Positions 45,001-51,000 are shown, counted from the first letter of the stretch. The stretch: 64,000 nt of DNA from Escherichia coli (GCF_017348835.2 NZ_CP072315.1); one strand, 5' to 3'. Made by a program: the numbers.

Positions 45001-48000
45001 GGACTGACGACAACGATTCACAGTTAGGAAACGTAAATCAGCACACCGGTGAGATAGATTTTAGGGTCTAAGCAAGAAATAGGGTAGGCGTGAAGATTCA
45101 TTAATGGAGCTCATAACGTCAAAGCGTAGAGAAGTCGACAAGAATCGTGGTTTAAAAAGAATGAGCATTAGGTATGGACTAGAGAGTCTGAGCTCTCATC
45201 TGCAAGTTAAGCTCACAAAAAATCATAAAAAAGTAAACAAACATTAGCTTAGGATTGAAACAAAGGATAGAATTGTACGTATAACAATGAAATGGACGCA
45301 TTATGCGTAAAGTTTACATATATGCGTAAAAGTCGGTTTTCAGTGCAAAAAGGTCATAACCATGAATTTACTTGAAAAGATCGCCCTCGTTGGTCAGCGC
45401 ATGAAAAGCGAGCAGATTTCTCTTAAGGAATCTCTGATGGCTTCATCAAGAGTATCTGTTTCTGATGATAGTGTTGATGGTGTTGATAGACTGATCTACA
45501 ACCACTGTTTAAATAAAAAAAATCTCTCTGATTTTTTTGGGAAGTCACGAGTAACGTTCAATAAAATACTTTCGGACTTAGAAGAAAAAGAAGTTGTTGG
45601 TGCACCTATTTATCAAAACAAAAATCATCTTTACACCCGCTGGGATGTTCAAAAAATAATGGATGCCCTGGGTTATCCCAAGTACCGCGATCATTACTTT
45701 AGCAGAGCTATTGTTACTCAGAATCATAAAGGCGGTACAGGGAAAAGCACTACATCTGTAGCTTTAGCAGTAGCAGCTGCTTTAGATCTACAACTGAATG
45801 CACGTGTATTAATGATCGAATGGGACCCACAAGGTTCGATTGGAAGCAGCATGATTCAAAGTGTCTCAGAAGATGATGTCTTCCTTACAGCAATTGATGC
45901 AATCCTTGGAATTTATGAAGAAAATTCTGAGTATAAAAAATATTTAGATTCAGGATTCTCTGAAGAAGAAATCATCACTAATATGCCTTTTTCAACGCAT
46001 CTGCCAAACTTGGACGTGATAACGGCATTTCCGACAGATGCTCGTTTTAAAGATAAATACTGGCAATGTTCTAGAGAAGAACGAACGTCTTTGTTACTAC
46101 GTTTCAAGGAAGTTATCTTACCGGTACTGAAGCAGAACTATGATTTGATTATTATAGACACTCCACCTGAAGATTCACCTTTGATCTGGGCTGCTGACGA
46201 AGCGGCCGATGGGATTCTTGTCGCAGTGTCACCACGTGAATATGATTACGCCTCTACTACAGACTTCATGCTTACAATAAGTGAAAGGTTTAAACAATCA
46301 CCAAGTAAGGGCGATAATTTAAAATGGTTCAAAGTTCTTGCTGTCAATGTTGATGACAAAAGTCCATATGAAAGAATAGTTTTGGATAAATTAATCAGAA
46401 CTGTTCAGGACCTTTTGATGTCCGCTAACATAAAAAATTCTGAAGCATTTAAGGCAGCTGCTTCCAAAGGGCGTACAGTGCTTGATATCAAAAAATCAGA
46501 GGAACTTTGTTCCGCAAAGCAACTTGATGTCGCAGAAGAATCTGTATTACAGGTATATCAACAATTTATAAATGAAATAAAAAGTTTTTCAGCTAAGCAA
46601 GGAGTTAACGCATGAGCGATGAGCAACATATCGGGAATGATAAATCTCGATATTTAAACGCACCAAAGCGGACAGAAGTCGGTCACCGTTCAGGTCTTGC
46701 GGGTTTGAAAACAGCACCTCGCATAAAAAAGTTATTCACTCTTCATAAGGGCCGAAGACTTGAAGCGGAACATGTGATTGTTCCAGCCCAGAGAGTGGAG
46801 AAGGAGACCTTAGTCCATCCAGCAAACCCACGAAATCAAGAAGCCCTTACAGATTATTCTGTTAGAGATATTCTTAAGCAGATTGAAGAAAGAGGGGTCG
46901 ATACCGAAGGGATCGCTGTAAAAAGAGATGGGGTTTATTTATTAATAGAAGGAAGTCGCAGACGTTTCTGCTGTATAAAGGCAGAAAAGGATCTCCCCCT
47001 GTGGGTACTACCGGATGAACTAACCGAAGATGATATAAATTCAATTATATCCGCAGCACAAACATCTCGAAAATTTTCATATAGAGAAGTTGGGTTTCAA
47101 TTTATCAAGAAAATGGAAGAAAAGGGATTTTCTACTAATGAAGAACTCGCAGCATATCTTGGGATTAGTCATGTATCGGTAGCCAAAAGAATCCAGGCGG
47201 CACGTATTGACGAAACATTGATCTCTTTATTCCCGGATTATGAAGGAATACCGAACTCCTATTATAGTCGCTTGTCTCGTTTACAGAAATATGTGCAAAA
47301 AAATCTATTTCCTTTAGATGAAGTAATAGATAATGTTAAAGAGGAAACAAAAGATTTAGACATTGGAGATCTCCAAGTTGCCCAAAAAGTTGTAATGGAG
47401 AAAATCACACAATCTGTGGAAAGTGTTTGTGAAAAATCTTATTCCACAAAATGGGAAACAAGTGATCTTATTACTTTTGATAACAAAGATAAGTATGCAA
47501 GAATCAGTAAAAACAATACTGGAAGAAAAATTCGCATTGAATTCAATAGGATAAGTGCGGGTTTTATTAAGGAGCTAGAGGAGTTCATAAAAGAAAAATT
47601 AAAAGTATCAGAATAAATATTGAACTGCATCTTTATGATGCAGTTCATATGATTTATATTTTTAATTTCTTGTTATATTAATATGGGGTGTGCGCAGGTT
47701 CAGACATATAAGGTCTTAGTTCTATATGAACAGAAGCGCCATTCCCATCATTTACTACGTTTAAAGGTGCTTTGCCCGGCAATGACATAGTTGCAACGTC
47801 AGGTCCAGAAACAGCAAAATTATTTTCTGCTGAAGGCATTACTGTAAAAATCTTTATAGCAACATTTTCATGTCTAAATAAAGAAATCCCAAAAGTAGAA
47901 CCAGCTTCGGTATTGCTCACGTCCACAACCACAGGGGTTTTTCCTAGATATTCATTAGTTAGTATGTTTTTTACTAATGCCCCTTCCGGGACAGTATAGA

Positions 48001-51000
48001 TACGGTATGGATATGCTAAAACTGAGTGACAAAAACATAATAAAATAACAATTAATGTTTTTTTCATAGATTATCCTCATTCAAAAATAAAAGATATAAC
48101 TCTTGAAAATCGTGGTTATTAATTAGGTCCGCTTTTCCGGGAAAATCGTAACTAACAGAAAATAAAAGAGAAAGAGAATCTTTTCCTTTTGCTTTGGGAG
48201 AGATTCTGCTAAAAGCACGGTTAATAAACATAAGTTGATCTTCATTGTTGAAGCAAAGTCCAAGCATTCCAACCGTAGGAACTACGAATGTGCTTACGCT
48301 GCCTGGGGGCAAAAGTTGCTTACTACGGGCATTGTAAGCACAACGACTACCACCTAGCGTTAGGCCTGAAAGCTCAATAAAACTTCTGGTTCCATTCTTG
48401 GCGACAAGCCAAACATCAGTTCCTGAACTTTCGACACGTAAAGTAACTTTTCCGTCAGTAAAGGCCTCACTTTTATTGTATAGAATAGGGTCAAAACCAA
48501 CTGTCGGGAGTTCTTCGATTTTACTTTCTACTGACTGACAACCAGTCAGTAATGCAAACAATAAAAGTGTGATAACTTTAATCATCCCGCTTCCTTAGAT
48601 TGTTTTTGGCGCTGGTTATAAAAGATAATGATTCACCGGGGTAGAGAATTGTTTCTTTCGTCCAATAACGATAACCACCGAGGATATCTTTTCTTTTCTC
48701 AATATAAACCGGTTCAGAAAATTCTAAATGTTGATATTTCGGAAGAGATAAGATTTTATATTTTACTTGTCCAACTAAGAGGTAATTCTTCTCTTTAGGA
48801 TTGATGGTTACTGAATTACCAACACTTTGAGGTATGTTAAGTTTTTTTATATTTAGATCAGAATCGTCAGGAACGGACACTTGATCATTAGATGTCTTTC
48901 CGGGAAGAGTAAACCCTTTACCCTGATCCGGTCCAAAGATGGCAATTACATCTTTGTTGTTTCTTGTGATCGAAACGATAGCCTGAAGGGGCGTATTAGC
49001 AAGGTCATTTATAAACGATATAGTTATACTTGATTTAGGCTCGACCCAAATAATGCTTTTTCCGGATGTGCCTTCGCTTAATGCAATTTTTTCATTTAGT
49101 AAGATTTTATTTTTGGCAATGATATTATACTCAAGTTTCGGTATCACCATAAAAAGTGATTCTTTATTTGAAACATTCATGATTTCTAAGAAATTGGTTT
49201 TGGTCATGCTGGTCTTTAGAACAGGCCTATATTTACCATTTATAAACCACCTTCCGTTTATAAGCTCCGCTTTAGCAGATATAAGTGAATCACTTTTCTG
49301 AGCGGCAGAAGAAAAAGCATCTTTTCTTTGCTCTTTCTCTTGATGTGGTGCAGCTGCTGCGTGAAGATGCAAAAGTAATGTTGAAATTGAGATAATCTTC
49401 CATTTTATCTTCATCTTGTTACCTCAATGTTGTTTTCAATCGAATCGAGTTCTAACGGATAGGTTTTAAGTGAATAAAACTTGTTTGTTGTTTGTATTAG
49501 CTGATGACACAATAAAACTGGATTGTTCTTCATGATTATTTCTACTAATGTAAGTGCTGGTGAGTCAGTTGGCGGTATACCCGGAGCAACTATTACCTGG
49601 TCTTCTAATTTTGACATATAGAGTGATCCAGTATTTATATGTAAACAATTACCGATCAGTACTGGAAGATTGTTTTGAGTACGACCATGGGCTTTTCGAA
49701 TGCTGTTTACAGGATTCCTACCTAGGACCATAAGGTTGACGTCATTTATCATCATTGGTATTACGGCATGGTCCATACCGAATAGAAACTGGCTCTGAAA
49801 AATATTCACATTGGCATAGTTGAATGCTTGAAGCGCATTATAAGTATCAGTGAATGATGTGCGGATAGGGGCGTAATCAGAAGGGCAAACCCCAATTTTT
49901 ATATCGCCTTTGAGTAAAATCTGCATCATCGTACCAAGCTGGGTATTAAGAAGTTTTTTTACCTCTTCCTCTAAATAGTAACGATTTACAGCTTTATGCC
50001 ACTTTCCGCCCATTACACACCATCTCTCATTGAGGTATGTGCTGGGGTAAAATGTTCTCCGGTCTTTGTTTAATGGTAACAATTTTTTTAACATTTCTTC
50101 TCCGGCTCCGGCAGCTGAGAAATGCCTCACAAAACGTCCATCGAAAAAGCCACTGTTTATCGCCTTCATCAACTCTATGGGTTCCGGCCCATAGTCAAAC
50201 AAATTTCCAGTAGAGAAAATTACTATCTCTTCTTCTGGCTTTGTAACTGATTGAATCAAGTTGCACAGCGCAGAGTAATGTCCATGAGGATCTGCCAGAA
50301 AGAAAATCCTTCCCGAGAAGTTTGTAAGGTCTATAGTTTGGACGTGCTCAGCTGCCATAAATTCCTCTACGTATGTTTACATCGATGATACGGTATTTCG
50401 AGCTATGATTTTTTTACATAAAGGCGTCATTTTGGATTCTAAGCCTAAGGACCTTTGTTACTTACTGGTAAAGGCTCCAGTCCTGGCTCTCAAACAGTTC
50501 ATACTTAGGATGCAAAGTAACTTTCTGATTATAATTGGCTCCTTTATAAACATGTTTACTTCATGAATACAGGATATTTAACGGTAATGTATTTAAAATG
50601 GAAGGATGCTGAAATAACATAGAGTTACGTATTTTTTTAATAGTGTTGATGTTGATAATAGGTCACCATTAATGTATAAAGTTAATATCTAATATGGTCC
50701 TATTAATAAAAGAGAGTTTTTATGGCTGAACTATTAAAATCTGAAAGTCCTGTTTCACAATCATTGCAGGATATCACTGAAGCTTTAAAAATCGTTGTCG
50801 ATGATGGAAGTAAAGCTGCAAAACTGGTTTGTCTTAATGAAAGAAACGAATTAGTTCCCTTGCTCACACAAAATAGTTTTGTTCCAGATTTCCGTGTTCG
50901 CCATGAGGGTCTCAATCCTTTTAACTATCTTATTGATGGGCTGGAAAGGTTTTCGCATCACAGCGAATCTAGTAACTCACTGGAATCGACTGATGTATCT

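Follow-up and report, generated by a model that had tools for sequence, protein, structure and literature searches.

Why would a phosphatase-like gene be read together with three genes for exported proteins, in a compact operon lying between two plasmid partition modules? The question is raised by positions 47678-50358 of a 64,000-nt stretch of Escherichia coli DNA (GCF_017348835.2, NZ_CP072315.1), which is referred to below as the window. A preliminary description of this DNA recognized four overlapping genes there, coding for proteins of 315, 278, 173 and 129 residues, regarded their combination as odd, left the phosphatase-like gene unexplained and proposed that the envelope proteins might be entry-exclusion proteins of IncHI plasmids. 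The combination is instead that of a named and published operon. The region is very probably the IncHI2 orthologue of the Z operon (trhO-eexB-orf017-trhZ) of the IncHI1 prototype plasmid R27, a module of Tra2, the conjugation region, with accessory roles in efficient transfer and in the exclusion of incoming IncH plasmids, and the system as such is already known rather than new.

Correspondence with the R27 Z operon

The listing of open reading frames (ORFs) contains exactly the four genes described, all of them on the minus strand: trhO (49411..50358), eexB (48578..49414), orf017 (48064..48585) and trhZ (47678..48067). Successive genes overlap by 4 nt (ATGA), 8 nt (ATGATTAA) and 4 nt (ATGA), and the four are translationally coupled. 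In R27 the same four genes lie between parM and parB (NC_002305, 20184-22897), with overlaps of 1, 8 and 4 nt, and they correspond one to one with the genes of the window. Over their full length, the global identities between the window and R27 amount to 70% for TrhO, 40% for EexB, 57% for orf017 and 77% for TrhZ.

The names come from R27. In Tables S3 and S4 of Gibert et al. 2020 (PMC7366339), R0015 is listed as trhO (Z), a 'phosphodiesterase', R0016 as eexB (Z), an 'exclusion protein', R0017 as 'lipoprotein (Z)' and R0018 as trhZ (Z). Since R0016 carries the label eexB, the 278-residue protein of the window is the EexB orthologue, and the R27 naming together with the orthology bears out the earlier guess that entry exclusion is involved. 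A comparative-genomics preprint on IncHI plasmids likewise gives the Tra2 gene order as 'parA, eexB, parM'. According to the passage of PMC11628540 that quotes Lawley 2003, disruption of trhO or trhZ lowers the transfer frequency of R27, and the phosphatase-like gene is therefore not without a reported role. Papers citing Gunton 2008 describe EexB as an outer-membrane protein and state that EexA and EexB are required in the donor and the recipient alike. In public databases, the 315-residue protein is named TrhO and the 129-residue protein TrhZ. The Gunton abstract reportedly reads the Z operon as '015, eexB, 017, eexA', and trhZ is presumably the gene that was later named eexA.

The operon is widespread on plasmids of this type. 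Its 4-kb stretch is found in PLSDB with an identity of at least 99% in 681 plasmids and of 95-99% in 445 more, the carriers being stated as 1127, and the hosts of these matches belong to Escherichia, Salmonella, Enterobacter and Klebsiella. The four genes are real, as 1127 PLSDB plasmids carry the stretch, the ratios of non-synonymous to synonymous substitution rates (dN/dS) lie well below 1 and the R27 orthologues are transcribed. One of the PLSDB matches, pD90-1, is typed IncHI2A, and its genes follow the order htdO, trhB, htdT, trhV, traC-like, parA, parB, the four operon genes, parM, htdA, rsp, trhF, trhU and trhN; the surroundings are the Tra2 conjugation region of the IncHI2 backbone. 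More broadly, only 10 loci of the TrhO family were found in 185,579 species genomes, all of them in Enterobacterales.

Two records deserve mention in their own right. In the Salmonella IncHI2 plasmid NZ_MW025965.1 (17111-22447) the 4-kb query is matched in two pieces and an IS3-family transposase is annotated there; an insertion sequence has entered somewhere within the parB-operon-parM stretch of this plasmid. The 5.2-Mb complete-chromosome record of Enterobacter hormaechei CP169086.1 contains a copy of trhO at 99% identity, which suggests that an IncHI2 plasmid has integrated there or that the replicon was assembled wrongly.

The position of the operon invites a different explanation, namely that it forms part of the surrounding partition and maintenance region or represents unrelated cargo such as phage defence. 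In both IncHI1 and IncHI2 it does lie between two partition modules, which in the window are ParA/ParB (45362-47616, plus strand) on one flank and ParM with a ParR-like gene (50722-52409, plus strand) on the other. This placement, which the preliminary description had noted, holds for the window and for R27, but it is lineage-specific. The IncHI1B-type Klebsiella plasmid pMTY12138 carries the same four overlapping genes (5490-7874; 267, 238, 166 and 138 residues; overlaps of 11, 14 and 29 nt); there the immediate neighbours of the operon are the htdA-side genes on one side and traC on the other, and par modules are absent. Pairwise identities to the window are 30% for TrhO, 25% for EexB (E 8e-10), about 34% for the lipoprotein and 44% for TrhZ. 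The lack of par neighbours in the IncHI1B-type plasmid indicates that the operon is part of Tra2 rather than of the partition region, and that the par modules were either inserted around it in IncHI1 and IncHI2 or lost in pMTY12138. A contig of an uncultured Buttiauxella (3882-11657) retains the arrangement parR-parM / trhO-eexB-lpp-trhZ, yet relative to the operon its parA-parB pair is inverted when compared with the window. As the literature also assigns the operon to Tra2 and to exclusion (PMC7366339), an origin in partition or as cargo is barely credible. A phage-defence system was considered separately and rejected, as PADLOC returned no matches.

TrhO and its metal site

TrhO has no N-terminal hydrophobic segment and is predicted to be cytoplasmic. 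It scores above the Pfam threshold of the Metallophos family (PF00149) and has the calcineurin-like alpha/beta sandwich fold of the lambda phosphatase group. In lambda phosphatase, the two metals are held by D20, H22, D49, N75, H139 and H186, while H76 serves as general acid and R53 binds phosphate. Alignment with canonical relatives allowed the corresponding motifs of TrhO to be mapped. Motif I, canonically GDxHG, reads A-D23-P-H25-G. When compared to the lambda Ser/Thr phosphatase and E. coli PrpA/PrpB, GDxxDRG of motif II has become G-N52-L-F-D55-Y56-G, GNHE of motif III has become G84-A85-G86-E87, the motif IV His is replaced by Pro (C-P159-S-D) and GHT of motif V reads G213-R214-N215. The sequences DPHG, GNLFDYG and GRNP, noted previously, are thus all present, but GRNP, which had been counted as the third motif, belongs to motif V, and the third motif is in fact GAGE.

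Only the first two ligands are retained in TrhO. Four of the six canonical metal ligands are replaced, and so are the His that would serve as general acid and the Arg of motif II (the changed positions being N52, A85, G86, P159, R214 and Y56). The loss is not peculiar to the window: R27 TrhO has identical degenerate motifs, the bridging Asp of motif II is Asn in all 16 proteins of the TrhO clade, the Asn of motif III and the His of motif V are absent from every one of them, and the His of motif III is missing in 15 of the 16. By comparison, the same profile retrieved 48 canonical relatives in which, apart from one exception, these residues are retained. The binuclear metal site is dismantled across the whole family. 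Judged by its motifs, TrhO should be unable to work as a canonical phosphatase, and the earlier suggestion of a pseudo-enzyme is supported by this family-wide loss. The family itself is very narrow, with 14 clusters in 5.8 billion proteins; in a collection of 1.84 billion proteins the TrhO profile recovers 67 representatives at E <= 1e-3, and most of the full-length matches are canonical phosphatases.

It could be argued that TrhO is nonetheless active as a phosphatase or phosphodiesterase through a non-canonical site, and that it would tune conjugation either by removing phosphate from a target of host or plasmid origin or by cleaving a nucleotide signal. The 'phosphodiesterase' label of the R27 literature (PMC7366339) and the Pfam score speak for activity, as does strong purifying selection, since trhO is under tight constraint between IncHI2 lineages (dN/dS 0.04 and 0.10). 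In addition, most of the family keeps D23 unchanged, and close homologues all share D55, E87, H121, H197, H224 and H240. However, the replacement of four ligands, the general acid and the motif II Arg is a pattern fixed across the clade, and even motif I is not secure, its His being exchanged for Y, C, Q or R in relatives and its Asp for N in two. The wider clade keeps only L11, G16, G51, N52, F54, D55, G84, E87, W113, G117, G118, W120 and H121, and the conserved ligands among these are too few to form a binuclear centre. Taken together, an active TrhO appears improbable.

The distance from the canonical enzymes is also evident in size and score. TrhO exceeds lambda phosphatase and PrpA/PrpB by about 95 residues, which include a C-terminal beta extension, and it reaches 23.6 bits where the equivalog cut-off is 332. 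Catalytically inactive scaffolds with a metallophosphoesterase fold are known from Vps29 of the retromer, from the B subunits of DNA polymerases alpha, delta and epsilon and from Plasmodium GAP50, and the view of TrhO as a pseudo-enzyme would place it beside them. The likeness is one of fold only, as TrhO has no sequence relationship to these proteins, and their cellular context differs.

EexB, orf017 and TrhZ

The export of the other three proteins is read from their sequences alone. Strongly hydrophobic segments of 15 residues mark the N-termini of all three; the lipoprotein has a further, borderline internal segment of this kind (from residue 97), and the 315-residue protein has one at 198. 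EexB begins with what looks like a Sec-type signal (MKIKWKIISISTLLLHLHAAAA/AP), orf017 with a lipobox and TrhZ with a short signal or anchor, while TrhO has none of these, in agreement with the earlier division into three exported proteins and one cytoplasmic phosphatase-like protein.

In the structural model, the 278-residue EexB consists of two consecutive cupredoxin-like beta domains in an oxidase arrangement. Its Pfam Cu-oxidase score is 15 bits against a cut-off of 21, and the copper-ligand motifs (HxH, HCH, Met) are absent. The protein contains no Cys and four His, two of which lie in the signal peptide, and its homologues have no invariant His, Cys or Met. With no Cys, and only two His in the mature protein, neither of them invariant, oxidase-like copper binding is not possible. 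EexB shows no sequence-level similarity to any solved structure. Assignment to FusF or to a dehydrogenase (NCBIfam) was rejected, with 15-17 bits against cut-offs above 330. When compared to the multicopper oxidases and to the copper-less SufI/FtsP, EexB has two domains rather than three, no Cys and no conserved His, and its role lies in conjugative exclusion instead of oxidation or cell division.

EexB differs from its neighbours in the pace of its evolution, as eexB is the fastest-evolving gene of the region. Against an IncHI2 lineage of 98.5% identity, it has accumulated 14 non-synonymous and 8 synonymous changes (dN 0.022, dN/dS 0.47), when the dN of the neighbouring genes is 0.001-0.014. 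Against a second IncHI2 allele, whose protein is 87% identical, dN reaches 0.062 and dN/dS 0.40, compared with a dN of 0-0.017 for the neighbours and an identical TrhZ protein. More IncHI2 alleles exist at 78-79% protein identity; at least three classes can be told apart, at about 95%, 87% and 79% identity. Between the window and R27, eexB cannot be aligned at the DNA level, and because the proteins are only 40% identical as well, the exclusion specificity of the two plasmids may differ. This pattern of divergence suits a specificity determinant.

The 173-residue orf017 product has the lipobox MIKVITLLLFALLTG-C16 (LLTG-C16) with Gln at position +2, which by the Lol rule suggests sorting to the outer membrane. 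The lipobox recurs in the relatives as LVTGC (R27), LLTAC (pMTY12138) and LLSGC (Buttiauxella contig), and searches of Pfam, NCBIfam and the PDB gave no match for orf017. EexB itself has no lipobox.

TrhZ, the last product of the operon, is a small beta protein of 129 residues that appears to be exported or membrane-anchored (N-terminus MKKTLIVILLCFCHSVLA/YP). It is 65-82% conserved across many clusters, and among IncHI2 lineages its changes are confined to the signal peptide, the mature part being invariant. A match to PEGA (PF08308) at 16.2 bits stays below the cut-off of 20.8; PEGA matches at E <= 1 occur in 6 of the 14 homologues, and TrhZ contains a literal PEGA...GxTP motif.

Expression, exclusion and surroundings

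Expression data from R27 help to weigh what the operon does. At 25 and 37 °C, the values are 487 and 611 for R0015, 232 and 215 for R0016, 203 and 171 for R0017, and 210 and 277 for R0018 (PMC7366339, Table S3), and the Z-operon genes differ from the remaining tra operons in showing no temperature response. Derepression of the plasmid through loss of htdA brings the drR27/R27 ratios at 25 °C to 8.3, 12.1, 17.1 and 16.0 for the same genes in the same order (Table S4). TrhR/TrhY activate the Z operon in R27, and a homologue of htdA is located downstream of the operon in the plasmid type of the window.

One interpretation of these data is that the exported proteins serve chiefly as accessory structural components of the H-type mating-pair apparatus, with exclusion as a side effect of homotypic contacts. 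De-repression along with the tra genes in the htdA mutant speaks for such a role, which also agrees with the high conservation of TrhZ, as befits a structural part, with the transfer defect of trhO and trhZ mutants that PMC11628540 quotes and with the need for Eex proteins in the donor besides the recipient that the citing papers report. On the other hand, expression at 37 °C as strong as at 25 °C suits a function in non-mating cells in the recipient state, and EexB diverges as fast as a specificity determinant would. The abstract of Lawley 2003 is moreover said to count 11 essential mating-pair formation genes, none of them from the Z operon, which also weighs against a structural role. A primarily structural function is thus rather unlikely.

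The exclusion reading can be turned into a proposed mechanism. The exported Z-operon proteins would be placed at the mating apparatus, EexB, which has only a Sec signal, possibly being retained at the outer membrane through orf017, the lipoprotein that is translated along with it. In a recipient that already bears the plasmid, the exported proteins would engage their counterparts on the donor, and this contact of like with like would abort mating-pair formation or DNA entry, with the divergence of EexB setting the specificity of exclusion. In the cytoplasm, TrhO would act as a non-catalytic scaffold or adaptor for the assembly or activity of the transfer machinery. Put together, and offered tentatively as a possible rather than a probable account, the Z operon may combine two 'dead enzyme' folds that were co-opted for conjugation: a TrhO pseudo-enzyme as the cytoplasmic H-type adaptor, and a copper-less EexB that, held by orf017, may recognise its own kind on the partner cell and whose divergence may define exclusion groups within IncHI2.

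Several points weigh against the Z-operon assignment and the roles built upon it. The literature yielded no experiment on the IncHI2 operon as such, and PMC6764697 and PMC5390554 do not mention these genes. The function is carried over from an IncHI1 operon whose EexB is only 40% identical. The assignment of eexA is provisional, and protein localisation and the polarity of the trhO insertions are known at second hand. Confidence in the TrhO model is moderate (predicted local distance difference test score 70.9), and the invariant His residues H121, H197, H224, H240 and H285 could form a non-canonical site. The dN/dS of EexB, 0.4-0.5, is elevated but does not prove positive selection, and the pairing of EexB with orf017 as well as the scaffold role of TrhO are conjectural.

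Exclusion proteins of other plasmids offer a useful comparison. Like EexB, TraT (IncF) and Sfx (IncC) are encoded in the transfer region, reside in the outer membrane of the recipient and diminish mating with related donors. Similarly to the Z operon, Sfx is expressed independently of the transfer activator; however, Sfx acts in the recipient only and targets TraN, whereas the Eex proteins of IncHI are needed in the donor too, and the likeness to Sfx is one of description. A TraT-like exclusion protein was rejected as a candidate, since none of the four proteins matched the TraT family in Pfam or NCBIfam at E <= 1. Separately, R27 has a 290-residue lipoprotein gene adjoining trhN (R0004, 4082-4954), whose expression is high at both temperatures (9779/5433 in Table S3 of PMC7366339). 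By description only, R0004 resembles Sfx (286 residues) in size, lipoprotein nature, place beside traN and constitutive expression.

The operon is bounded by two non-coding elements. Upstream, trhO and parM diverge from an intergenic region of 363 bp (50359..50721), which presumably holds the promoter of the Z operon and the parM promoter or centromere. No sigma-70 consensus match was found in this spacer, the scan total being below that of shuffled controls, and this fits an activator-dependent promoter such as the one served by TrhR/TrhY in R27. Between IncHI1 and IncHI2 this spacer shows little conservation. The sole conserved block near trhO, shared by IncHI1, IncHI2, Pantoea and Buttiauxella, is GTAT(C/T)AT (50385-50391, minus strand), about 25 nt upstream of the ribosome-binding site, and the Shine-Dalgarno sequence AGAGGA lies 6 nt ahead of the trhO ATG. 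At the other end, a hairpin with an 11-bp stem (5 G-C pairs) and a 5-nt loop, detected on both strands, falls at 47621..47647, where it separates the stop codons of parB (47616) and trhZ (47678), as a bidirectional terminator common to the convergent parB and trhZ transcripts. The inversion of parAB in the Buttiauxella contig implies that this convergent junction and its shared terminator are not universal.

The base composition of the region calls for a correction. The operon, which had been described as AT-rich, is indeed so relative to the whole window (G+C content 0.376 versus 0.430), but not when compared to the flanking par modules (0.377 and 0.380). A special AT-richness of the operon was therefore rejected; since its composition equals that of both par modules, it is a property of the backbone and not a feature of the operon.

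Further from the operon, the 3.8 kb between trhC and parA (41526-45361) contain no ORF of at least 100 residues in any frame, and their G+C content is about 0.50, against 0.38 in the flanks. A tandem array with a 249-bp unit (10.5 copies, 71% matches) occupies 42404-44982, and an equivalent unannotated gap of 3.1 kb is present in R27. The stretch may be a repeat region for partition or incompatibility. Its identification with the incC of PMC4853401 was rejected, as that incC maps to another region of the plasmid.

To conclude, what is added to a known operon lies at the level of annotation: a pseudo-phosphatase, a copper-less oxidase-like exclusion protein, the divergence of eexB alleles and the independence of the operon from the par modules. 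The findings on TrhO and EexB correct the routine labels 'metallophosphoesterase' and 'phosphodiesterase'. Exclusion, the mechanism of which is poorly understood in IncH plasmids, shapes the co-residence and the spread of plasmids, and IncHI2 plasmids are a major vehicle of resistance genes, among them mcr-1 and those for carbapenemases.

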